A stretch of 64,000 nucleotides of DNA from Dehalococcoidia bacterium (GTDB taxonomy: Bacteria; Chloroflexota; Dehalococcoidia; Lucifugimonadales; UBA3495), in assembly GCA_965222895.1 (NCBI GenBank), contig CBDCVB010000002.1, forward strand, positions 1,005,608-1,069,607, in the 5' to 3' direction. Numbering within the stretch: the first letter of the stretch is position 1; every line of letters starts with the position of its first letter. This document shows, one piece after another, positions 8,730 through 63,352 of the stretch. The position numbers and the translations under genes are program-made. Below the pieces are notes generated by a model. That model saw only the letters and a program-made list of their open reading frames with translations. It was not told the origin of the DNA and searched no databases.

Positions 8730-9005
8730 ATGGCCAAAGTGCTATTGATCATCCCCGACGAGAACCGGGATCGTTTCGTCGACCAGGCTCGCCGGGAAGG
8801 GATGACCCTGAGCGCCTGGTTGCGAGCCGCAGCCCACGGTAGGCTCGGTCAAGGATTTCGCCGAGGCGTGTTCGATTCCCCGGACACACTGGCGGCGTTC
8901 TTCCACCAATGCGATTTGGCGGCCGGCACCGGACCTGAGCCCTACTGGCAGGAGCATCTGGCGGAAATCGACCAAGCCCGCGAAGGCGGGGCCATCGGCC
9001 AGTGA
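8730..9005 (+). CDS. type II antitoxin (VapB/RHH-like)
   Basis: 91-aa ORF immediately upstream of a PIN-domain gene, with a GTGA stop/start overlap. Confidence 0.6.
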   Translation: MAKVLLIIPDENRDRFVDQARREGMTLSAWLRAAAHGRLGQGFRRGVFDSPDTLAAFFHQCDLAAGTGPEPYWQEHLAEIDQAREGGAIGQ

Positions 9006-9400
9006 TCTTCGTCGACAGCAACGTATTCATCTACGCGGTGGGCAATCCGCAGCCGCTGCGGGATCCCGCCCGAAAGTTCTTCGCAGATTGCCAGGCCGAG
9101 GGCGTTCGCCTGATCACCTCAGCGGAGATGCTCCAGGAACTGGTCCACGTCTACTTGAGGGTGGGGCGCTTGGATGTGCTAGATGCCGCCACCACCCTGG
9201 CGACGGATGCCTACGCCGAGATCTGGTCCTTGGAAGCGGCAGACGTCGCCTTGGCGCGACGACTCCATGAGCGGTACCCGCCGCTGACCTCCCGGGACCT
9301 TTGCCACTCGGCGTGCTGCCAGCGTCGGGGCCTCAGGAACCTGAAAACCTCCGACTCCGGACTCAGAGATGTGGTTGCAGAGCCGGATGAGTCCAGGTGA
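9002..9400 (+). CDS. vapC: PIN-domain toxin (VapC family)
   Basis: MIFVDSNVFIYA (acidic D5), LITSAEMLQEL and PPLTSRDLCHSA fit the PIN pattern. GTG start overlaps the antitoxin stop. Confidence 0.75.
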   Translation: MIFVDSNVFIYAVGNPQPLRDPARKFFADCQAEGVRLITSAEMLQELVHVYLRVGRLDVLDAATTLATDAYAEIWSLEAADVALARRLHERYPPLTSRDLCHSACCQRRGLRNLKTSDSGLRDVVAEPDESR

Positions 9401-9524
9401 CCTACTCCGGGCTGATGTCCGTTTTCCCGCACCCAGGTATCTATTGTCGGTCCGCTACCCTCCGATTTTCCGAAGGAAACTATCCGGATAAGTGGTCCGA
9501 CTGACGCATCTTGCCAACTCATCA

Positions 9525-9806
9525 ATGGCCCATTGCCTGTCCCCGGACCTGGAGGTTGGCGTCAAGGATGGCCGCATCCACGCGCTGGCCGGCGTGCGCG
9601 CCGATACCGGCGAGTGTTTGACTCTGAGTGTTACCCGCCTAAATTTGGCCAACGCCCTGACCCGTTTGCACGAGTTGGCTGATGGCGCAGGTTTCATGCT
9701 GGGCCACAACCTGATCGATTTCGACCTGCACCATCTGAGGGCCACCAACCCCGACCTGCGGCTATTGACGTTGCCAGCGGTGGACACCCTCCGGCTGAAC
9801 CCCTTG
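9525..9806 (+). pseudogene. N-terminal DEDD-type 3'-5' exonuclease (RNase H-like) domain of a larger protein, truncated by IS1595
   Basis: GFMLGHNLIDFDLHHL and LPAVDTLRLNPL resemble the exonuclease N-domain of large helicase-nuclease proteins. Homology ends at ~9806, where IS-type sequence begins. Confidence 0.5.
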
Positions 9807-10921
9807 CTTTGGGAATTATATACTTGTGTACACCAAACGCTTGACTGCTACCCTCTGCCGGTGTACACTGATGCTATAAATCAATTGGAAGGTTGAATGA
9901 TGGCTACTACACAATCCGGCCCCGGCAAGTCATATCGCAAGGGCGTTACTATCGTTGAAGCCGCGCAACGCTTTGGCAACGAAGTCGAAGCCGAAGCTTG
10001 GTTTGTCTCCCGTCGCTGGCCCGATGGCATCCGTTGCGCTTACTGCGATGGGGCTTCTATCACACCCCGCAGTAACGGTCGCCAAACCCCTGCCTATCGT
10101 TGCAATCCCTGCAAGCGGGATTTCACGGTAAAGACGGGAACGATTATGCACGATTCCAAACTGCCGCTTTCCAAGTGGGCGATGGCCTTGTACCTGTTTG
10201 CGACTAACCTGAAGGGCGTCAGCAGCATGAAGTTGCATCGGGATTTGGGTATCACCCAAAAGTCGGCCTGGCACCTGGAACATCGTATCAGGGAGACATT
10301 GAATGACGAAGCGCAAATGTTCCTCGGCCCGGTGGAAGCCGATGAGACCTATATCGGCGGCAAGGAAGGCAACAAGCACGAAAGCAAGAAACTGCACCAG
10401 GGGCGCGGGGCAGTCGGCAAGACCGCCGTGGCTGGGGTCAAAGACCGAAACACCAACACCGTTGACGCCGCCGTAGTAGCACGCACCGACGGCCCCACCC
10501 TGCGGACCTTCGTTCACGAGCACACTCAGCCAGATGCTACCGTCTATACCGACGAAGCGGCGGTCTATCGGCGGTTGAACCAGCCCCACGAAGCCGTTCG
10601 CCACAGCGCGGGCGAGTACGTCAACGGTATGGCCCACACCAACGGGATTGAATCCTTCTGGGCGATGCTGAAACGGGGTTACATCGGCATCTATCACTGG
10701 ATGTCGGCCAAGCACCTGCACCGCTATGTCAACGAGTTCAGCGGCCGGCACAACATTCGCCCCCTGGATACGCTGGGGCAGATGGCGGCAATGGTGCGTG
10801 GTATGGACGGGAAGCGGCTGACCTACGCCGCGCTGACCGGCCCTGCCCCCACACTCCAACCGCAGCTGATTCGGGAGTGATGCGAAAGGTCAAACAGAGG
10901 ATTAGCGGTTCAAGGAGTGGG
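9807..10921 (+). mobile_element. IS1595-family insertion sequence (boundaries approximate)
   Basis: Single transposase gene with its own promoter-like TTGACT-17nt-TACACT (9841-9869). The left boundary is inferred from the break in the exonuclease gene; the right end was not resolved. Confidence 0.6.
9897..10880 (+). CDS. IS1595 family transposase
   Basis: 327 aa with an N-terminal Zn-ribbon (CAYCDG...YRCNPCKRDFTVKTGTIMH), VEADETYIGGK, TVYTDEAAVY and NGIESFWAMLKRG. Confidence 0.85.
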   Translation: MMATTQSGPGKSYRKGVTIVEAAQRFGNEVEAEAWFVSRRWPDGIRCAYCDGASITPRSNGRQTPAYRCNPCKRDFTVKTGTIMHDSKLPLSKWAMALYLFATNLKGVSSMKLHRDLGITQKSAWHLEHRIRETLNDEAQMFLGPVEADETYIGGKEGNKHESKKLHQGRGAVGKTAVAGVKDRNTNTVDAAVVARTDGPTLRTFVHEHTQPDATVYTDEAAVYRRLNQPHEAVRHSAGEYVNGMAHTNGIESFWAMLKRGYIGIYHWMSAKHLHRYVNEFSGRHNIRPLDTLGQMAAMVRGMDGKRLTYAALTGPAPTLQPQLIRE

Positions 10922-19141: not shown

Positions 19142-19372
19142 GGATGGGACGCGGCCCACTTGACTGACGAGGTGAAATCGGCCAGGCGTCATAATGCAAC
19201 TCCGTTCCAGGCGACCAGTTGGATCACTCTCGAAATGTAATTGGAATCGGGCCCTCTAGCAGCAGTTGCAGACGGAACGCAATGCAACCGCGCCAGTCCC
19301 CGCAGGGTTCTACCTGCAGGACGAGGATCCGTGTTCCATGTATGATCCGTCCGGACCGAACGCATCTAGTAC

Positions 19373-20527
19373 TCAATCAATCTTGGAATTGAAGGGATAT
19401 AGGCGATGCAGTTTGGCTCGGGCGTCCTGGGTGTTGAACCGCCAGTTGATGGTGGCCCTCGCCGCATTGCGCTCGGCCGCATAGGCGTTGATGGCTTGCT
19501 GTAGGGCAGTCTCGTCGGGATTACGCCCTTGGAGACAAGCCCGGGTCAACACGCTGAACTCGATCTCCGCCATCCCTTCGGCAAGCTCAGGACAGGATTG
19601 AGCCAACTGGCGTGCTTGGGCGTGTGGTGAAACTCGAGGCGCTTCACGATGCGCCGAGCTTCGGCGGCGTCGCAGGTCTCATAGAGGGAAGCCATGCGGT
19701 GCGTGTTCAAATTGTCCAGAACCACCCGCACCACCGGGGCATCGGGGTAAGCCTCATCCACCAGCCAGCGCATCCGGTGGGCACAGTCCTCCATAGTGCG
19801 GCGCTCGGTAATCGCCACGTGTCGCCAGCCCGCCAGGGGCTCGCAGGTCAGGAAGATGTTGCGCGTGCCGGCGCGGCGATATTCGTAATCCTGACGCCGC
19901 GGTTGTCCCGGTTGCACTGGGATGGGCGCCCTGGTGTCGGCCAGCAACTGGGTGGAAGTCTCATCGAAGCAGACCACCGGCCGGTCCGGGTCGTAGGGCT
20001 CAGCATACAAGTCCAGCACGTCCTCCATCGCCGCCACGAATTCGCCGCCTACTTTCGGGATGCACCACTGCTGCTTCCGCCACGGCTGGCGGACGTTTTT
20101 TGAGCCTCAACCGCACCGTCTCATGGGACAGGGACTCCACCAACCCCAACTCCACCACTCGGTCGGCCAGCAGCTGCAGGGTCCAGTGGTCGTGGCCAGC
20201 GGGCGCTGGGCTGCACGCCAGGGCAATCAGGTGGGCCTCGCCCTTGTCGTCCAGCTTGCGATACCGGTTGGCCTGGACCCGATCCTGCAACACGCCATCC
20301 AAACCTTCCTCAGCGTACCGCCTTTTGGCCCGGTACACCGTACCCTTGGACACGTCCAAAGCGGCCGCCACCTGAGGTGCGTTCCATCCCTCATCAACTT
20401 TAAGTAGAATGCGCGCCCGGGCGACGATACGAGCCAAACTTTTGCCGCTACGTAGCAGTCGGCTCAGTTGCTCCCGCTCCTCCGGCGTCAACCGTACTGC
20501 GTATTGCTCCAGGGCCATGTTTGCCAC
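19373..20527 (-). pseudogene. IS630 family transposase, three frames (A6 run plus 23-nt insertion)
   Basis: ORFs 20000-20527 (HTH), 19546-20037 (DDE core, VLDNLNTH) and 19373-19606 (MAEIEFSVL...). Confidence 0.85.
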
Positions 20528-20581
20528 ACCTCCCCACCATTCGATCTTGCGGTCAGCGTAGCATTTGTAGGCCTTTCACTA

Positions 20582-21690
20582 ACTGATGTTACGCAGCCTT
20601 GAGGAGTTGGAGTTCGTCAAAGGCCTGGCGAACCGCCTTGAGATATATCCGGGTTCGCAAGGCAAAATGATTCAGCTGGTGGGTCATACTGAGCCATTCC
20701 AAGCGACAGGCCGAGTAGATTGCCATGAAACAGTGGTTGCTTTGAGTTCGGACGGTCTTCCCCGGCGACTTGGCCAGCGCGGCGTTGCCCTTGAGCGTCT
20801 TGTGAAACGTCTCCACTTTCCACCTTTGTTGGTAGATCGTTCTAATGCTCTCGCCTTCACTGTCCAATTCGCTGCAAGCCAGATAGAGAGTCCCAGTGCT
20901 GCCGTCTTTGTTCTTAAAGATCTGGCGCAGCAGCAGGACCGGAAAGTCCAGTCCCCGCAGCCAGCCGCGCACTGGTTGACCTTCCGGCAGGTCCAGCGTG
21001 TCGATCCGGTGAAAGCTGCCCTGAAGTTTCGCTGCATGGCTCAATGCTGCTGTCCGGTTGGATTTGAGCGCGATAATGAACTCCTTGTTCAAGTCCTTGT
21101 GGCTGAAACTCAGGTTTTCTTTGGACGAAAACCAACTGTCGGCCAGCACATAGCGATACTCCAGCCGGTTCTGCTGACACACCTTGAGCATCCGGCGCAT
21201 CAGTTCGTTCTTGGAGACCGCGCTCCTGCGCTTGAGCCGACCGGTGTTCGCATCCTTGAACATATTGGGCTTGCGGATGATTTCGTAGGCCACTGGCAGC
21301 GTTATACTCTGCGCGTGGTAAACGCAGTTGAGGATGTTAATGCCCTTGATGGTTCGGTTCTTGCTGTGATCGAAGTGCCAGGTGACGATCTCGTTCTCGT
21401 CGGTATAGGGCTTTTCCTCAATGGTATCGTCAAATATCAGCGCGCCATTGGGCGGTTCGATCTTTCGCACCATGAGCTTGACCAGCTGCCAGAGGGTCCT
21501 GGAGTCGTAGCCCTCCTGGGACAGCAAGCGGGTTATCCGGTCATGGCTGACTTCCCCTTCCAGCATATTGGACAGGCCGGTGGCTGTCGCCGCCCCAAAG
21601 GAGCTCAGCAGGTAATCGCTATAGAGTTCGGTCAGTTCTTTATTCATGCTTCAAAGATAGCAGTTTCTGCAGCCGGTGCGTAAGGTCAGT
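20582..21690 (-). mobile_element. IS4/IS701-like insertion sequence (1109 bp) with 5-bp target duplication CACTA
   Basis: Inverted repeats are ACTGATGTTACGCAGCC and the reverse complement ACTGACCTTACGCACC. CACTA lies at 20577-20581 and 21691-21695. The uninterrupted paralogous site in IS630 copy B carries a single CACTA. Confidence 0.85.
20589..21647 (-). CDS. DDE transposase, IS4/IS701-like
   Basis: 352 aa with FDDTIEEK, YVLADSWFSS and the Y-2-R-3-E-6-K motif YQQRWKVETFHKTLK. Confidence 0.85.
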   Translation of the reverse strand: MNKELTELYSDYLLSSFGAATATGLSNMLEGEVSHDRITRLLSQEGYDSRTLWQLVKLMVRKIEPPNGALIFDDTIEEKPYTDENEIVTWHFDHSKNRTIKGINILNCVYHAQSITLPVAYEIIRKPNMFKDANTGRLKRRSAVSKNELMRRMLKVCQQNRLEYRYVLADSWFSSKENLSFSHKDLNKEFIIALKSNRTAALSHAAKLQGSFHRIDTLDLPEGQPVRGWLRGLDFPVLLLRQIFKNKDGSTGTLYLACSELDSEGESIRTIYQQRWKVETFHKTLKGNAALAKSPGKTVRTQSNHCFMAIYSACRLEWLSMTHQLNHFALRTRIYLKAVRQAFDELQLLKAA

Positions 21691-21729
21691 CACTAATATA
21701 ACTTACAATACTGATTTGAACCAGTACTA

Positions 21730-21890
21730 GTACTACAGCCGCACACCAAACACTAACTCGCTACTCTTAGCTTCGATCCATCACTGGATTTAGCCTTGCT
21801 CACTTAAGAGCAAAGCCAGTACGCCATAGCTGGACATTGCGATTTTCAATACCGCCCGACCCTCTGGGCGGTCATGTGCGACTGTAGTAC
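21730..21890. mobile_element. 161-bp IS630/Tc1-type MITE flanked by TA
   Basis: 15-bp inverted repeats are GTACTACAGCCGCAC (21730-21744) and GTGCGACTGTAGTAC (21876-21890). TA lies on both sides. Confidence 0.65.
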
Positions 21891-21892
21891 TA

Positions 21893-22338
21893 GTACTCGG
21901 TCAACATTGGAAAGGCAGATGAAGGATGAAACGGGCGATGGTTGCCACGCTGGCGGTCAAACAGCGGTGCGGTAGGTGCGGCATCCATGGTTGCGGAGAA
22001 ATATGCGGTACGGTTGTCGTCGGAAGATCGGGCCCAACTGGAACGGTTGATCCGTAGCGGTCAGCGCTCAGATCGGATCATCAATCGGGCGCGCATCCTG
22101 CTCAAGACTGACGACGGATGGAGCGCCTCACGGGTGGCCGCAGCCTTGGACACGTCGCCGCGCACGGTGTTCCGCACCAAACGCCGGTATTGGGAGGAGG
22201 GATTGGACGGCGTGCTGCACGACCATCCCCAAGCCAACCGGTATCGCAAGCTGGATGATCGGGGTGAAGCCATCTGATTGCCTTCGCGTGCAGCGACGCC
22301 CCCGAGGGCCATGAACACTGGACCCTGCGGTTGCTGGC
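21893..22338 (+). mobile_element. third, diverged IS630-family element (copy C), 5' fragment only
   Basis: Starts GTACTCGGTCAAC after a TA. It encodes MVAEKYAVRLSSEDRAQLERLIRSG...ANRYRKLDDRGEA, then frameshifts. It ends at 22338, where copy B is inserted. Confidence 0.75.
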
Positions 22339-22340
22339 TA

Positions 22341-23586
22341 GTACTGGTTCAGATCAGTATTGTAAGTTGTATTAGTGAAAGGCTTCCAAATGCTACGCTG
22401 ACCGCAAGATCGAATGGTGGGGAGGTGTGGCAAACATGGCCCTGGAACAATACGCGGTACAGTTGACGCCGGAGGAACGCGAGCGACTGAGCCGACTGAT
22501 ACGTAGCGGCAAAAGTTCGGCACGCATCGTTGCCCGAGCGCGCATCCTGCTCAAAGTAGTTGAGGGATGGACCGCACCACAGGTGGCGGCCGCTTTGGAC
22601 GTGTCCAAGGGTACGGTGTACCGCGCCAAACGACGGTACGCTGAGGAGGGATTGGCGGGAGTCATCCAGGATCGGGTCCAGGCCAACCGATACCGGAAGC
22701 TGGACGATCGGGGCGAGGCCCACCTGATTGCCCTGGCGTGTAGCCCAGCGCCCGCTGGCCACGACCACTGGACCTTGCAGCTGCTGGCCGACCGAGTGGT
22801 GGAGTTGGGGTTGGTGGAGTCCCTGTCCCATGAGACGGTGTGGTTGAGGCTCAAAAAAACGTCCCCCAGCCGTGGCGGAAGCAGCAGTGGTGCATCCCCA
22901 AGGCAGGGGGTGAATTCGTGGCGGCGATGGAGGACGTGCTGGACTTGTATGCTGAGCCCTACGACCCGGACCGGCCGGTGGTCTGCTTTGATGAGACTTC
23001 CACCCAGTTGCTGGCCGACACCAGGGCGCCCATCCCAGTGCAACCGGAACCACCGCGGCGTCAGGATTACGAATATCGCCGCGCCGGTACGGGCAACATC
23101 TTCCTGACCTGCGAACCCCTGGCGGGCTGGCGACACGTGGCGATTACCGAGCGCCGCACCATGGAAGACTTCGCCCACCAGATGCGCTGGCTGGTGGATG
23201 AGGCTTACCCCGATGCCCCAGTAGTGCGGGTGGTTCTGGACAATTTGAACACGCACCGCATGGCTTCCCTCTATGAGACCTTCCCCGCCGCCGAAGCCCG
23301 GCGCATCGTGAAGCGGCTGGAGTTTCACCACACACCCAAGCACGCCAGTTGGCTCAATCCTGTCCTGAGCTTGCCGAAGGGATGGCGGAGATCGAGTTCA
23401 GCGTGTTGACCCGGGCCTGTCTCCAGGGGCGTAATCCCGACGAGACTGCCCTACAGCTAGCCATCAACGCCTATGAGGCCGAGCGCAATGCGGCGGGGGC
23501 CACCATCAACTGGCGGTTCAACACCCAGGACGCCCGAGCCAAATTGCATCGCCTATATCCCTTCAATTCCAAGATTGATTGAGTAC
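22341..23586 (+). mobile_element. IS630-family element copy B (1246 bp), TA-flanked
   Basis: Starts GTACTGGTTCAGATCAG and ends ...GATTGAGTAC. TA lies at 22339-22340 and 23587-23588. Confidence 0.9.
22427..23582 (+). pseudogene. IS630 family transposase with an A7 -1 frameshift site and a 23-nt insertion before the catalytic-E motif
   Basis: ORFs 22427-23107, 22840-23409 and 23349-23582. LRLKK then -1 gives NVPQPWRKQQWCIP at CTCAAAAAAAC (22853-22859). SWLN and MAEIEFSVL are separated by 23 nt (23359-23381). Confidence 0.85.
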
Positions 23587-23606
23587 TAGTAGTGACACAT
23601 TACCAG

Positions 23607-24137
23607 TCAGGAATCAGTCCGGGGACGCTGATTCCCCCAACGTCCCGACATCCAGATTAGTGCCGCGCTGACCACAAAGTACCCCGCGAACACTCTGAAA
23701 GCAACATCGTAGCTTCCGAAATGGTCGTAAACTAACGCAGCGAACATTGGCCCGCCAATGCTGGCGATGACGTAGAACGGGCTCATCACTCCTCTGATCG
23801 CGCCTTGGTGCCGTCGGCCAAAATGCGCCGCCCACAGCAGAGGCCCAATCACGACCAACGAACCTCCGGTGAGCCCGTACATCACTCCGAATGTTCCGTG
23901 GAACTGCCAAACACTCGTTGAGCCCACGCCAGGAAAGATGCTGATTGCGCTGCCAATTAAAGCGATTATGGCCAGCAGCCAAATCGAGTAACGGTCTGCC
24001 AAAAATCCCCAGGCCAGTTTGGCCGCGAATGCGCAAGCGCCGTAGATCCCAAACGAGATCCCCGCTTGCACATCTGAAAAGCCGAGATCAGTTGCGTACG
24101 GGATCCTGTGGATTATCAGAGCGCCTATCGGCGTCAA
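23607..24137 (-). pseudogene. MFS transporter, C-terminal half only
   Basis: 176-aa ORF with about 6 TM segments, paralogous to the C-terminal half of the MFS gene at 25565-26899. The N-terminal half is replaced by the repeat array. Confidence 0.7.
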
Positions 24138-24149
24138 CTCGGATTAATT

Positions 24150-24975
24150 TCTCACGCGTACCCACTTTGTCAAACCAAACCAATCTACTGTCATGGCGAC
24201 CAGCGCCCACCTCACTTGTCATTGCGAGGAGCGTAGCGACGTGGCAATCTCGTTGGGGTTGAGTACGCGTCGGTGAACCATCATTGCTGCGGCGACCATT
24301 GCTACGGTAACGAGATTGCCACGCTCTGCGCTCGCAATGACAAAAGTGGGTACGCGTGAGAACCAACCTACTGCTATTGCGAGGAGCGTAGCGACGTGGC
24401 AATCTCGTTGGGGTTGAGCACACGTTAGTGAACCATCATTGCTGCGGCGACCATTGCTACGGTAACGAGATTGCCACGCTGCGCTCGCAATGACAAAAGT
24501 GGGTACGCGTGATAAACCAACCTACTGCCATTGCGAGGAGCGTAGCGACGTGGCAATCACGTTGGGGTTGAGCACATGTTAGTGAACCATCATTGCTGCG
24601 GCGACTATTGCTACGGTAACGAGATTGCCACGCTGCGCTCGCAATGACAAAAGTGGGTACGCGTGATAAACCAACCCACTGCCATTACGAGGAGCGTAGC
24701 GACGTGGCAATCTCGTTGGGGTTGAGCATATGTTAGTGAACCATCATTGCTGCGGCGACCATTGCTACGGTAACGAGATTGCCACGCTGCGCTCGCAATG
24801 ACAAAAGTGGGTACGCGTGAGAACCAACCTACTGCCATTGCGAGGAGCGTAGCGACGTGGCAATCTCGTTGGGGTTGAGCACACGTTAGTGAACCATCAT
24901 TGCTGCGGCGACTATTGCTACGGTAACGAGATTGCCACGCTGCGCTCGCTATGACAAAAGTGGGTACGCACGAAA
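24150..24975. repeat. tandem array of 5 units (~154-bp period) of a composite palindromic repeat
   Basis: The CATTGCGAGG landmark recurs at 24220, 24375, 24529, 24683 and 24836. Each unit holds the arm CATTGCGAGGAGCGTAGCGACGTGGCAATCTCG, a ~57-nt loop, the arm CGAGATTGCCACGCTGCGCTCGCAATG, then the linker ACAAAAGTGGGTACGCGTGAGAACCAACCTACTGC. Confidence 0.9.
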
Positions 24976-25119: not shown

Positions 25120-25497
25120 ATGAACATCCAGACTTTGGAGCGGAGCCCACAGAACCACCGGGGCGGGCAGGTGTCGCACTTGCTTTTGGCCTCGGGGCAG
25201 TTTGGATCGGAGAACCTGGCCGTAACATGGGTTGAAGGTGAACCCGGCAGCGAACAAGCGGCCCACTCCCACGAAGGTCGGGAACAGGTGTACGTCATTG
25301 TCCAGGGACGGGGTGCGATGCGGGTTGGGGACGAGGTGGAAGAGGTCGGGCCGGGCACGGCCATTTTAGTGCCGCCGGGCACTAATCACTTCATACGCAA
25401 CATTGGGGAGGATAAGTTAATCTACGTCTCTGCCACTTCCCCGCCCTTTGCGATGCAGGAGGGCAACACCAACTGGTCGGCTCCGGCCGGGCAGTAG
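25120..25497 (+). CDS. cupin domain protein
   Basis: HSHEGREQVYVIVQGRGAMRVGDE...GTAILVPPGTNHFIRN. AGGAG RBS at 25106-25110 and ATG at 25120. Confidence 0.75.
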   Translation: MNIQTLERSPQNHRGGQVSHLLLASGQFGSENLAVTWVEGEPGSEQAAHSHEGREQVYVIVQGRGAMRVGDEVEEVGPGTAILVPPGTNHFIRNIGEDKLIYVSATSPPFAMQEGNTNWSAPAGQ

Positions 25498-26899: not shown

Positions 26900-26974
26900 A
26901 CGTCCTGTTCTTATATCAGACCACTGTTATTGGGACAAGCAGCCGTGTCCCCGCCACGCGTGTTCATTTTAATC

Positions 26975-27090
26975 TGTCATTGCGAGGAGCATAGCGACGC
27001 GGCAATCTCGATGACGTTGAACACGCGCCGGCGCACCGCCGTTGCTACGGCGACGAGATTGCCACGCTACGCTCGCGATGACAAAGTGGT
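26975..27090. repeat. single copy of the palindromic repeat family
   Basis: TGTCATTGCGAGGAGCATAGCGACGCGGCAATCTCG ... CGAGATTGCCACGCTACGCTCGCGATGACAAAGTGG. Confidence 0.85.
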
Positions 27091-27372
27091 TAGGCATGAT
27101 GCCCTGTGCGGCCACAACCCCAATCGAAGCGCACTCCAACTCCTCCCCCTCCATTGTCCAGTAGTTCCTATAGAATGCTACCGAGCAGTCTGTTGACGAT
27201 CGCGTAACAGGCGGGTGAGCAAGATGGCTAAACAAGGGCTACTGACAACAATACGAGATCGCTGCCGGGCTTGCTCCACGAAGGACATGCGCCGCCACCT
27301 TCCCGAGCATTGGCAATCTGAGCGCCAGTCCTTTGGACCAAGTTGTTTTGACGACACCACCCAGGAAGGAGA

Positions 27373-48620: not shown

Positions 48621-49610
48621 TTAGGCGGGACCACGCAGGTTGCCGGCTTCCATCACCTCCGGATTAATCACGCGCACCGCCTCGCCAGCGGCAAAGGCCC
48701 GAATATTCTCAACCACACCGGCGTAGAACGCACGGTAGCCGTCATCTGTAACGTAGCCAACGTGCGGTGTAATCAGGGTGTTGTCCAGTGTCAGGAAGGG
48801 ATGATTGACCGGCAACGGTTCAACATCGAATGTATCCAGCGCCGCGCCGCCAATCGCCCGCCGTTCCAGCGCGCTGACCAGCGCCGGTTCGTCCACGATT
48901 GGCCCCCGGGAGATGTTGACCAAAATGGCCGACGGTTTCATCAGGCCGATCTCGTGGGCGCCAACCAAGCCCCGGGTGCGGTCGCTGAGGCGCACGTGCA
49001 CCGACACCACGTCACCTTCGGAGAAAAGTGTGTCTTTATCTACCAGAGTGGCTCCGCATTCAGCAGCGCGTTCTGCCGTCAGATTCTGGCTCCAGGCGAT
49101 GATGCGCATATCGAACGCTACACCCACGCGCGCCACCAGCGAGCCGATGTGCCCCAGTCCCAGCAACCCCAGCGTCTTGCCCTTCAGTCCGGCGCCGACG
49201 TATGCTCCCCACTTGCCTTCAGCGCGGGTGGTTCGATCCTCTTCGGCGATGCGGCGCAGCAGCCCAATAATCAGGCCCCAGGTTAGCTCCGTTGGCCCTT
49301 CACCAGCGCCTTGCGTTCCGCACACGGTGATGCCGAACTCGGTGGCCGCATCAATATCAAACGACGCATTTCTGGCGCCGGTCGTAATCAGGCAACGCAG
49401 GTTGGGCAGCCGGGCCAGGAGGGAGCGGGGAAACGCCGTTCGTTCACGCATCCCCATCACAATGTCAAAGCCGGCCAACCGCTCCGCCAGCGTATTCTCA
49501 TCGCTCAAATGGTCGGCAAAGAAGGACACTTCTATACCCGACGGCAGCGACGACCAGTCGGCCATTTCAGCGGCCACGCTTTGGTAATCATCAAGAATGG
49601 CTACTTTCAT
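48621..49610 (-). CDS. D-isomer-specific 2-hydroxyacid dehydrogenase
   Basis: MKVAILDD..., GKTLGLLGLGHIGSLVA, NISRGPIVDE and ITPHVGY. Start chosen at 49610. Confidence 0.85.
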   Translation of the reverse strand: MKVAILDDYQSVAAEMADWSSLPSGIEVSFFADHLSDENTLAERLAGFDIVMGMRERTAFPRSLLARLPNLRCLITTGARNASFDIDAATEFGITVCGTQGAGEGPTELTWGLIIGLLRRIAEEDRTTRAEGKWGAYVGAGLKGKTLGLLGLGHIGSLVARVGVAFDMRIIAWSQNLTAERAAECGATLVDKDTLFSEGDVVSVHVRLSDRTRGLVGAHEIGLMKPSAILVNISRGPIVDEPALVSALERRAIGGAALDTFDVEPLPVNHPFLTLDNTLITPHVGYVTDDGYRAFYAGVVENIRAFAAGEAVRVINPEVMEAGNLRGPA

Positions 49611-49743
49611 ATCAGACCAATCCTTAGGGCGAGACGAATCGGCGCGTGCTGTGCTGCCGTAACGCGCCACCGCAGGAAGTAAAGCACAGGCCCACCGGGC
49701 GGTCAAGAAAATACCCGCCTCGCAGTTACTCGACCCGCGTCGC

Positions 49744-49908
49744 TCACGCGTACCCGCTTTTGTCATTGCGAGCGCAGCGTGGCAATCTCGTTCCAGTGGC
49801 GATGGTAGTTCGCCGACGTGTGCTCAACCTCATCAAGATTGCCGCGTCGCTACGCTCTTCGCAATGACAGTAGGCCAGTTGGGTTTGACAAAGTGAGTAC
49901 GCGTAAGG
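49744..49908. repeat. full-length single copy of the palindromic repeat family (outer and inner arms)
   Basis: TCACGCGTACCCGCTTTTGTCATTGCGAGCGCAGCGTGGCAATCTCG ... AGATTGCCGCGTCGCTACGCTCTTCGCAATGACAG ... TGACAAAGTGAGTACGCGTAAGG. Confidence 0.85.
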
Positions 49909-62011: not shown

Positions 62012-62034
62012 TCACGTGTACCCGCTTTGTCATT
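62012..62034. repeat. left part of a palindromic-repeat copy split by IS110
   Basis: TCACGTGTACCCGCTTTGTCATT matches the outer arm plus the first bases of the inner arm (compare 49744-49770). Confidence 0.7.
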
Positions 62035-62276
62035 TGTATGTTGCAAGTGTCCCGCGAATGGGCCAATTTGCGGGGTAGGTGGGAGGGGCGCGTCGTCTGT
62101 CATTAGGTGGGCCAGGCTTGGCAGCTGGGCTGCACCGTCTCGCAGTAGGACACCCCTCCCATAAGGCGCTGGGCTGCTCCGAACGGATACATGGGTGGTT
62201 GTCCCGCAATGCAAGTGTGGAGGGTCCCAGCGCCGCCATTATCACACATATCACACCAGGATCAGGGAGGCGACCG
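62035..62276 (+). ncRNA. candidate bridge-RNA-encoding 5' non-coding region of the IS110 element
   Basis: 242-nt non-coding leader upstream of the recombinase gene. It contains CGCAATG (62205-62211, complementary to the CATTGCG target junction), TGTCATT (62098-62104) and a duplicated GCAAGTGT. Confidence 0.3.
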
Positions 62277-63221
62277 ATGATGCAATCGACGGCAGGGATT
62301 GACGTGGGCAAAAGGGAACTGGACGTGTCGGTGGACGGAGATCGCGCGCGATGCTTTGCCAACACGATGGCTGGGGTTGCTGAGTTAGTGGGTTGGTTGG
62401 GGTCCCAGGGCCCGCTGCTGGCGGTTTGTGAAGCCACTGGGGGATATGAAGGATTGGTGGTGGAGGCGTTGCGCCAAGGTGGAGTACCGGTGCATATCGC
62501 CCATCCCAACCAGGTGCGAGCCTTTGCTCGGGCCTGTGGTTATCAGGCCAAGACCGACGGTTTGGACGCCATGGTGCTGTCTCGGTATGGCCAGGTCTTC
62601 CAACCGGCACCCACCCTGGCCCAGGAGGCGGACCGAGGCCAGTTGCAGGATCTGCTGCGCCGACGGGAGCAGTTGGTGGGCCAGCGCACCCAGGAGAAGA
62701 ACCGGTTGTCCCGGGTTCACAATCCAGCGGCCCAGGATTCCGTACGAAGGCACATCGCCTGGCTGGACCAGGAGATCGGGATGCTGGATGATCAGTACCA
62801 GGAACTCCTGGAGCAGAACGTGGAGTTTCGGCGACAGGTTGAGGTGTATCGCAGCGTGCCGGGTGTGGGTGTCCAGACCGCCGCCGCCCGGGTCGCCTGG
62901 TTGCCCGAGTTGGGCCGGTGTGACGGAAAGGCATTGGCCGCCCTGTGTGGCGTGGCGCCCTGGTCTCGGGACAGCGGTCAAAAGCGGGGCTACCGATCCA
63001 CCCGTGGCGGACGCCGGCCAGTACGACGCGTGCTGTACTTGGCCAGCATGGCCTCAATCCGCAGCGCCGCGGGGTTGGGACACTTCTACCGGCAACTGCG
63101 TCAGCGGGGCAAACCGGGCAAAGTGGCCCTGGTGGCAGTGATGCGGAAGTTGTTGCTGCAACTCAACGCCGTAGCTCGTCGCGGTACCCCTTGGACCGCC
63201 CAATTCCCACCCACCACCTGA
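62277..63221 (+). CDS. IS110 family transposase/recombinase (DEDD + Ser)
   Basis: MMQSTAGIDVGKRELDV, VCEATGGYE, AKTDGLDA, SVPGVGVQTAA and GLAPWSRDSG-like CGVAPWSRDSGQKRG. GGGAGG RBS at 62265-62270. Confidence 0.85.
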   Translation: MMQSTAGIDVGKRELDVSVDGDRARCFANTMAGVAELVGWLGSQGPLLAVCEATGGYEGLVVEALRQGGVPVHIAHPNQVRAFARACGYQAKTDGLDAMVLSRYGQVFQPAPTLAQEADRGQLQDLLRRREQLVGQRTQEKNRLSRVHNPAAQDSVRRHIAWLDQEIGMLDDQYQELLEQNVEFRRQVEVYRSVPGVGVQTAAARVAWLPELGRCDGKALAALCGVAPWSRDSGQKRGYRSTRGGRRPVRRVLYLASMASIRSAAGLGHFYRQLRQRGKPGKVALVAVMRKLLLQLNAVARRGTPWTAQFPPTT

Positions 63222-63249
63222 TCCTCTCTTGACACACAACACAGATACT

Positions 63250-63352
63250 GCGAGGAGCGTTGCGACGTGGCAATCTCGTTCCGGTAGCGACGGTCGTATC
63301 TTCTGCTTCGAGATTGCCACGCTTCGCTCGCAATGACAGTTTACGTAAAGGT
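63250..63352. repeat. right part of the palindromic-repeat copy split by IS110
   Basis: GCGAGGAGCGTTGCGACGTGGCAATCTCG ... CGAGATTGCCACGCTTCGCTCGCAATGACAG. Confidence 0.8.

Follow-up and report, generated by a model that had tools for sequence, protein, structure and literature searches.

A five-unit tandem array of a palindromic repeat beside a truncated transporter gene in a Dehalococcoidia bacterium: probable local amplification of a resident copy

A 64-kb stretch of the genome of a Dehalococcoidia bacterium (GenBank assembly GCA_965222895.1, contig CBDCVB010000002.1; hereafter the window, numbered from its first letter) contains five tandem units of a long imperfect palindrome, located between the remnant of a major facilitator superfamily (MFS) transporter gene and a cupin gene. 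The array is probably due to the local amplification of a single copy already resident at the site, as a neutral by-product of a repeat of the type represented by the repetitive extragenic palindromes (REPs) with a CGTC tag and by the hairpin motifs that bracket the Ssn nucleases; a Chloroflexota repeat is in this way tied to two published frameworks. As regards annotation, the locus is to be labelled a repeat cluster beside an MFS pseudogene, and neither a coding sequence nor an RNA gene.

Tandem Repeats Finder (TRF) describes 24220-24969 as a tandem repeat with a period of 154 bp, 4.9 copies and 95% matches (score 1352); a period of 307 bp scores slightly better, indicating a weak two-unit higher order. 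The landmark 10-mer CATTGCGAGG, which a first-pass annotation made from the letters of the window had placed at 24220, 24375, 24529, 24683 and 24836, confirms the five units, being exact at 24220, 24529 and 24836 and one base off at 24375 (TATTGCGAGG) and 24683 (CATTACGAGG). Within the array there are five matches to the 33-nt left arm, at 0-1 mismatch, and the rest of the window has three (26978+, 49834- and 63246+); no arm match is expected in shuffled sequence. The units had been said to differ only by scattered single-nucleotide polymorphisms (SNPs); these are present, together with indels of 1-2 nt, and the full-length units (U1-U4) show 5-12 aligned differences in pairwise comparison, indels included, U5 being left out of the counts because its right end is unique flank. 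The features of the array are listed below, where L122 indicates an orthologous locus on a 3.6-Mb ENA contig reached via homologues of the truncated MFS protein.

24121-24149, no strand: retained ancestral intergenic flank (ATTAATCCGAGTTGACGCCG), with a deletion junction at 24128/24129 that joins the flank to mid-MFS sequence.
24150-24172, + strand: left outer arm, or cap, TCTCACGCGTACCCACTTTGTCA, inversely complementary to the outer arm of every linker and present in L122 too.
24173-24222, + strand: left spacer (AACCAAACCAATCTAC...) and then a 28-bp segment (24195-24222) flanked by TGTCAT direct repeats, as seen in the alignment with L122.
24218-24374, + strand: unit 1, with the long arm GTCATTGCGAGG...GCAATCTCG (24218-24252), the 15-nt loop duplication (24283-24312), the short inverted arm ending at 24341, and the outer arm and linker.
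24375-24528, + strand: unit 2, tag changed from GTC to GCT.
24529-24682, + strand: unit 3, tag changed from GTC to GCC, with a stem mismatch (CTCG to CACG).
24683-24835, + strand: unit 4, tag GCC, with a stem mismatch (CATTACG).
24836-24975, + strand: unit 5, tag GCC, with the right outer arm ...GGGTACGCACGA and the flank as in the single copy of L122.

In each unit a 33-nt long arm and a 27-nt short inverse arm enclose a loop of ~55-58 nt, and a linker of ~36 nt with the outer arm AAAGTGGGTACGCGTGA follows; the anatomy first read from the letters (arms of ~34 and ~28 nt, a ~57-nt loop and a 35-nt linker with the outer arm) therefore holds. The long arm corresponds to the short arm with the addition of two 3-nt bulges (GAG and ACG). 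The oriented motif is (T/C)GTC-ATTGC-GAG-[variable]-CG(TG/AA)-GCAAT-C, present in two inverted copies per repeat and presented identically on both strands; the outer stem of the arm is of 5 bp (ATTGC/GCAAT) and encloses an interior of 17-23 nt, in which a variable insert accompanies the conserved internal loop GAG/CGTG. In the lineage of the window an extra terminal inverted repeat of 23 bp (21-23 bp) encloses the arm pair and, as had been noticed, an inverted copy of the linker arm, perfect in its match, caps the left side of the array (TCACGCGTACCCACTTTGTCA, 24152-24172). The predicted fold of one unit is much more stable than those of shuffled sequences: with the cap, it reaches -106.9 kcal/mol as RNA (z = -9.3), the whole array has z = -12.2, and the core hairpin as single-stranded DNA (ssDNA) gives z = -3.6 and -4.1, one value per strand. 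The stable structure is the two-arm hairpin with its two 3-nt bulges.

The evidence for the origin of the array comes from L122, which is syntenic with the window (MFS444, cupin, element and MFS, at 91-93% nucleotide identity) and carries one copy of the element at the orthologous site versus five in the window; this difference in copy number between related genomes sustains the earlier proposal that the array arose by amplification. In the alignment, the cap, the left spacer, the 28-bp segment and the left half of U1 are the same in L122, and this is also true of the U5 right outer arm, GCACGA, with its flank. In addition, a 15-nt loop insertion is common to all five units and L122 and is not found in the other copies of the window or in L003 (Dehalococcoidia metagenome-assembled genome (MAG) OZ253540.1), the closest copy of the element, loop included. 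Because the left part of U1, the right end of U5 with its flank and the shared loop insertion all match L122, the array would have grown out of the copy already resident. At the internal junction, ...GCGTGAGAAC|CAACCTACTGCCAT, the right flank (in L122, ...CGAGAAC|GTCGC) runs into the left spacer (in L122, GTCAAAC|CAACCTA) with a 3-bp overlap, AAC, which argues for a duplication across this microhomology; moreover, the repeated unit has no left outer arm and starts inside the element, and serial insertion of whole elements is therefore disfavoured. The loop insertion is itself part of a mini-tandem repeat (CATTGCTRCGGYGAC; TRF consensus CGTAGCAATGGTCGT, other strand) at 24283-24312 in the window and at 8712-8751 in L122; the solitary copies and L003 have the 15-nt sequence only once, each array unit has it doubled, and L122 has 2.7 copies.

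In the proposed series of events, the founder would be a single resident palindromic repeat of ~190 bp, locally amplified in tandem. By a first duplication, the internal left spacer (CAACCTACTG…) would have come to follow the DNA just past the right end (…GCGTGAGAAC), over AAC; successively, one daughter, the founder of units 2-5, would have lost 28 bp between the TGTCAT direct repeats and gained the tag change from GTC to GCC, and unequal recombination or replication slippage would have expanded this daughter copy to give five units, possibly with the help of fork stalling induced by the hairpins. The 28-bp segment (24195-24222) is in fact ancestral at the locus, being in L122, and missing from units 2-5, whose left arms have GCC or GCT in place of GTC. 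SNPs are shared among units in a mosaic fashion (GAGAACC in U1 and U4, GATAAACC in U2 and U3, ACTATT in U3 and U5), a distribution that points to later unequal exchange. With one versus five copies in close relatives and a readable junction, the locus represents a clean example of the growth of a palindromic repeat cluster.

The arms of the window, judged by sequence, are not lineage-specific. A scan of one genome per species for the 30-mer CATTGCGAGGAGCGNAGCGACGNNGCAATC identified at least 120 genome stretches in ~14 phyla, including Alpha-, Beta-, Gamma- and Deltaproteobacteria as well as Bacillota, Bacteroidota, Chloroflexota, Planctomycetota, Spirochaetota, Nitrospirota, Armatimonadota, Verrucomicrobiota, Omnitrophota, Patescibacteria, Acidobacteriota and Marinimicrobia. 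In most loci an imperfect inverse arm follows the CATTGCGAGGAGCGNAGCGACGNNGCAATC arm 15 to ~100 nt on, and the inverse arms among the 129 listed comprise 44 of the short form, 5 of the long form and 37 of other forms; in particular, in loci L001-L120 the 33-nt long arm usually pairs with a 27-nt short arm without GAG and CGA/ACG. The bulged two-arm hairpin is conserved from Bradyrhizobium to Chloroflexota, and perfect long-long palindromes are rare (5/129). Across copies the spacing between arms goes from ~15 nt to a whole gene, and an oriented frame, GTCATTGC...GCAATC(TCG/CAG), with GTC 5' and C 3' of the palindrome, is present in the window and in at least 120 loci.

A profile search of all six-frame open reading frames (ORFs) in the arm-bearing loci retrieved three GIY-YIG ORFs of ~100 aa (L011, L077 and L099), each located exactly between a forward and an inverted arm; the match of an arm-flanked ORF to Pfam PF01541 (GIY-YIG) has E = 1e-16. 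Two further independent loci, L129 and L137, reached via GIY-YIG homologues, have the same arm bracket, and inverted arms thus enclose a gene for a GIY-YIG protein of ~97 aa in 5/5 independent loci. The arm-flanked proteins are 97-101 aa long and single-domain, with a weak match to the UPF0213 protein 1ZG2. One of the ORFs has at least 7970 homologues at E <= 1e-10, many on contigs < 1 kb; they are mostly from gut Oscillospiraceae, and none from large contigs of the relatives of the window is among the matches listed. The arm class, nearly invariant across phyla and bracketing the GIY-YIG gene wherever this gene is present, is of greater interest than the array.

In gut metagenomes (L127-L136; for example L129, 965-1852) the arm-flanked GIY-YIG gene lies between gyrB and gyrA with a 3.3-unit hairpin array upstream; this gyrB-gyrA cassette is fixed in a Ruminococcaceae/Oscillospiraceae population, with identical spacing in 10/10 contigs. 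In a Sphingopyxis MAG (L099, 1600-2500) the arm-flanked gene is disrupted by a frameshift or stop, which suggests that the cassettes decay in place.

The Ssn proteins are small single-domain GIY-YIG proteins (CDD cd10448) that bind oriented hairpin repeats, called NTS in Neisseria (CGTCATTCCCGCGMAVGCGGGAATCYRG) and "SRM" in general; binding is limited to ssDNA, with no RNA binding in the case of SsnA, and the cut falls a few nucleotides upstream of the motif, the GTC triplet governing cleavage and the C after the palindrome governing binding (Chenal et al. 2025, PMC11893778). The same authors likened the NTS-ssnA-NTS layout to an insertion sequence (IS), and transposition activity is not demonstrated for Ssn proteins (PMC11893778). 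The arms of the window share with NTS the frame GTCATT...AATC(Y)(R)G, with (C/T)GTCATT at the 5' side and AATC plus a tail at the 3' side; the inverted copies around a gene for a single GIY-YIG domain of ~95-100 aa recall the NTS-ssnA-NTS layout, and many gene-less intergenic copies spread over many phyla are found in both cases. A bridge between the two motifs is offered by the units of L129, where the partner of a GTCATTGC...GCAATC arm is NTS-like (GTCATTCC...GGGAATC). The short elements thus have the look of miniature, gene-less versions of an arm-ssn-arm cassette. By analogy with Neisseria SsnA and NTS, an Ssn-type nuclease would bind the arms as ssDNA, with cleavage a few nucleotides away on the 5' side of the GTC tag.

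CGTC-tagged REPs are characterized by a CGTC or TGTC (or CCTC) tag, a stem that starts with two A/T pairs, and a tail of 3 nt (consensus CCA); they occur mostly as inverted dimers, rarely in clusters, and no dedicated transposase was known in 2013 (Di Nocera et al. 2013, PMC3733652). Tag, stem start, tail and dimers have a counterpart here: U1, all right arms and the solitary copies have an unpaired terminal TGTC tag, a published variant; the ATTGC/GCAAT stem has A/T at positions 1-2; the 3-nt tail of the window copies is CTC, that of alphaproteobacterial copies CCA; and the formation of inverted dimers folding into larger hairpins, like the broad spread over phyla, is common to both. In contrast, the families CGTC-1 to -4 have a stem of 8-9 bp and a loop of 4-5 nt (PMC3733652), versus the 5-bp stem and 17-23-nt interior of the arms described here. 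The published survey contains no report from Chloroflexi (PMC3733652).

Arrays of comparable layout are also known. In the NIME arrays of Neisseria (dRS3/NTS and RS elements) the number of repeats differs between strains at syntenic sites, and alternating-orientation Ssn-type motifs, spacers of 50-150 bp and a copy number varying between relatives are found there as here; the NIME arrays have many mixed RS spacer families whereas a single near-identical unit is amplified in the window, and a link with transformation or surface-protein genes is not evident here. The tandem REPIN clusters and the BIME-2 arrays of Escherichia coli repeat a hairpin doublet with its flanking sequence head to tail and are of similar size; in Pseudomonas fluorescens SBW25 there are 16 tandem REPIN clusters, the largest of 4 REPINs and > 700 bp. 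REPIN clusters may adjoin the gene of the associated nuclease or transposase, as L129 does. The array is therefore comparable to clusters known from E. coli, Pseudomonas and Neisseria and is not a new kind of element; the repeat itself would be a variant member of the CGTC-REP/SRM kind, outside the formal SRM pattern, that probably works like an SRM.

Several observations weigh against this explanation. The copy number of the array rests on one assembly. The four internal outer arms read GCGTGA (GGGTACGCGTGA, 24343-24360 and equivalents), which is the perfect complement of the cap and the family consensus, and the terminal right arm reads GCACGA (GGGTACGCACGA, 24960-24972) in both U5 and L122; GCGTGA in the internal arms would not be predicted by a simple duplication and would need two substitutions or a gene conversion, whose donor might be another copy or the cap. 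The published SRM pattern HGTCWYN(0-2)YYVSBRHN(0-5)WNVSBRGN(0-2)RNCYNB matches the NTS control and has 0 matches in the window or in any of L011, L077 and L099; the arms differ from SRMs in their 5-bp outer stem, GAG/CGTG internal loop and variable insert, and in that a single arm is not stably folded. As ssDNA, a window arm alone is in fact unstable (dG -3.6/-3.5 kcal/mol, z +0.8/+0.3), and the hairpin of the Neisseria NTS control reaches -9.0 kcal/mol (z = -5.1); arm copies with a GC-rich insert (L003, L129 and L137) look foldable. Finally, the profile search of six-frame ORFs detected no GIY-YIG ORF in the 64-kb window, the part of the genome that was searched, and a cognate nuclease in the source organism is unproven. 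An arm class unmatched by the SRM pattern yet flanking GIY-YIG genes in all five loci implies that censuses of Ssn targets may be incomplete.

A wider and tentative idea, to which only a low probability can be assigned, is that the two-arm elements GTCATTGCGAG...GCAATC are pan-bacterial non-autonomous mobile elements, moved or copied via single-stranded hairpin intermediates by Ssn-type GIY-YIG nucleases. If this is true, the two-arm elements and the GIY-YIG genes are the counterpart of the REPIN system with its RAYT, the array of the window and that of L129 are footprints of Ssn-type activity, and the occurrence of a near-identical 30-mer in ~14 phyla reflects strict recognition by the protein together with horizontal spread of the cassette.

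In a first alternative for the array, it was built by repeated site-specific, self-adjacent insertion, the agent being an Ssn-type nuclease or some other transposase acting on ssDNA, in the manner of IS200/IS605-like elements, and it would be a record of transposition. The resemblance of the arm-gene-arm layout to an insertion sequence (PMC11893778, discussion), the internal GCGTGA arms, which follow the family consensus and not the locus-specific GCACGA, and the position of the L129 array directly beside a GIY-YIG gene, like REPIN clusters beside RAYT genes, all speak for it. The alternative is nevertheless unlikely: the unit has no left outer arm and begins within the element, a 3-bp microhomology between right flank and left spacer explains the junction, the locus-specific 15-nt loop insertion is in all units and in L122, and Ssn proteins are not known to transpose (PMC11893778).

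It is improbable, to a further degree, that the copy number is an artefact of assembly, by expansion or collapse of the repeat. Short reads have difficulty with a period of 154 bp at 95% identity; a simple mis-join, however, would not give units that each have SNPs or indels of their own, nor two distinct ends that match the orthologue, and the weak two-unit 307-bp period found by TRF is a further point against an artefact.

The array had also been proposed to be a structured-RNA array, in which case a multi-hairpin RNA, regulatory or a processing substrate, would be transcribed from the cupin-MFS intergenic region. The RNA folds are very stable (z = -9.3 for the unit and -12.2 for the array), but this stability follows simply from the inverted repeats. 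Rfam, searched with the gathering threshold on the window and an E-value threshold on the array, gave only tRNA elsewhere and one chance microRNA match; the search for promoter-like sites found none, and the array contains neither a terminator-like site nor a T-run terminator. Moreover, the motif is identical on both strands, which fits DNA recognition, the loop varies across copies from ~15 nt to a whole gene, the SNPs in the stems are uncompensated, and SsnA does not bind RNA (PMC11893778). The proposal is thus disfavoured and very improbable. An intrinsic terminator was considered separately and ruled out, as no T-run follows the hairpins.

Equally improbable is a function of the array, or its maintenance, as a landing pad for a repeat-targeting IS110 element. 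An nhmmer profile finds four family loci in the 64-kb window, namely the array, two solitary copies and one copy split by an IS110, with 16 arms in all (10 in the array and 6 in the three solitary copies), 12 of which pass the strict pattern. The loci outside the array are:

26955-27099, + strand: solitary copy with degenerate outer arms and without the 15-nt loop duplication, between the intact MFS gene and an M24 peptidase gene.
49744-49906, - strand: solitary copy with both outer arms.
62012-62034, + strand: left piece of the IS110-split copy, consisting of the outer arm and GTCATT.
62035-63249, + strand: IS110-family IS (DEDD_Tnp_IS110 and Transposase_20; ORF 62079-63221), inserted at the site GTCATT|GCGAGG.
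63250-63348, + strand: right piece of the split copy, in which a short loop separates the remainder of the long arm from the short inverted arm.

The presence of an IS110 in the repeat at 62035 is supported, since the element sits exactly at GTCATT|GCGAGG of a solitary family copy. IS110-family elements insert in REPs (PMC12288879), and dRS3 is the target of IS110-like phage-encoded recombinases; the insertion in the solitary copy parallels both, and these precedents, together with the site itself, make a landing pad conceivable. No array arm is occupied by an IS110, however, though the arms carry the site or a near variant, the left arm of units 2-5 is changed to GCCATT or GCTATT, the IS110 of L122 is unrelated and not in an arm, and being a possible target would be a by-product and not a selected function; the proposal is possible in principle and unsupported. 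The 5' non-coding end of the IS110 element contains CTGTCATTAGG (~62095), resembling the left half of the target, which could be a bridge-RNA guide.

Least probable of all, the units would be classical REPINs mobilised by RAYT, an IS200/IS605-type tyrosine transposase, and the array a REPIN cluster: doublet-hairpin architecture and tandem clusters are alike, but the tag is CGTC/TGTC and not GTAG, CGTC repeats do not flank tyrosine transposase genes (PMC3733652), and the arms flank genes of a GIY-YIG nuclease in 5/5 loci in place of an HUH tyrosine transposase.

As for frequency and function, the amplification of the resident copy is most likely neutral, with no sign of selection on the stems. 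Substitutions are present in the stems of U2 (C to T), U3 (T to A), U4 (G to A) and U5 (A to T), none with a compensating change, and their density is ~5/60 nt in the arms versus ~10/92 nt in loop and linker, counts too small to distinguish. By analogy with Ssn cleavage, a weaker cut would be expected at the left arms of units 2-5, which have the GCC/GCT tag, and the right arms keep GTC. The array is probably inert. The tandem arrangement had been considered unusual, and it is indeed uncommon, with three other arrays or clusters among ~125 independent arm-bearing loci; it is not unique, given these three and the REPIN, BIME and NIME clusters. In L129, the GIY-YIG gene is immediately preceded by 3.3 repeats of a 144-bp hairpin-pair unit (93% identity); in L090, single-arm units of 53 bp are repeated 8.5 times; and L107 is a six-arm cluster. 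Each 53-bp unit of L090 (142-594, Bacteroidetes MAG) has one forward arm variant (GTCACTGCGAGGAGCGCAGCGTCGACGCAATC). A census by protein search with a 75-aa ORF spanning two array units gave no matches. Arrays are therefore uncommon but recurrent, and of a kind already described.

On the two sides of the array lie the following genes:

23607-24137, - strand: MFS transporter remnant, C-terminal half, 176 aa (Pfam MFS_1).
25120-25497, + strand: cupin gene, the other neighbour of the array, syntenic with L122.

The array had been thought to replace the 5' half of the MFS gene, a reading that the comparison with L122 does not support. In L122 the element is located in the cupin-MFS intergenic region and the MFS gene (9558-10843) is nearly full length and frameshifted; in the window the flank ATTAATCCGAGTTGACGCCG is followed by a jump to mid-gene (ATAGGCGCTCTG...), so the MFS promoter and 5' half were lost in a separate deletion of ~850 bp, whose junction (24128/24129) is 21 bp outside the outer arm. 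The MFS remnant aligns to residues 348-437 of the intact paralogue. The MFS homologues found are all fragments of 96-306 aa, one of them from a Dehalococcoidia MAG, and in L121 the gene is truncated by a different IS; from these sequences the MFS gene appears to be decaying across the clade. The other loci with MFS fragments (L121 and L123-L126) have no synteny on the array side and no element.

The array locus is a decaying region, with a dead MFS gene beside an IS run. This run adjoins the MFS remnant at 19362-23592 and includes an IS630-like element (19362-20582), a DDE_5/IS4-like gene (20589-21647) and two further IS630 copies, one partial (21943-22328) and one with a frameshift (22338-23592); the IS630 copies of the window are ~89-90% identical to one in L121. 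At 8885-9455, L122 has an insertion of ~570 bp with ~20-bp terminal inverted repeats (TIRs; GATTAGTAACTGTTCAGAG / CTCTGAACAGTTACAGAGATTA) and an apparent GAGATTA target duplication, for which the window represents the empty site (GAGAAATTAATCC).

As regards the miniature inverted-repeat transposable elements of DDE transposons, which have TIRs with target-site duplications and share the TIRs with an autonomous IS, the family shows an outer TIR of 21-23 bp; no consistent target duplication is apparent at 3 copies, and no IS in the window or in 126 loci carries this TIR. Metagenome scans gave 0 matches for the lineage-specific outer arm and 0 for the loop family. In blastn searches with one unit, plasmids gave nothing and phages gave arm-length matches only, in 9 unannotated gut phage records; a literature search by sequence strings returned only chance primer matches. 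Finally, the 2-hydroxyacid dehydrogenase ORF at 48621-49766(-) has its predicted start, 49766, inside the outer arm of a solitary copy (49744-49766), and its true start codon is probably further downstream.

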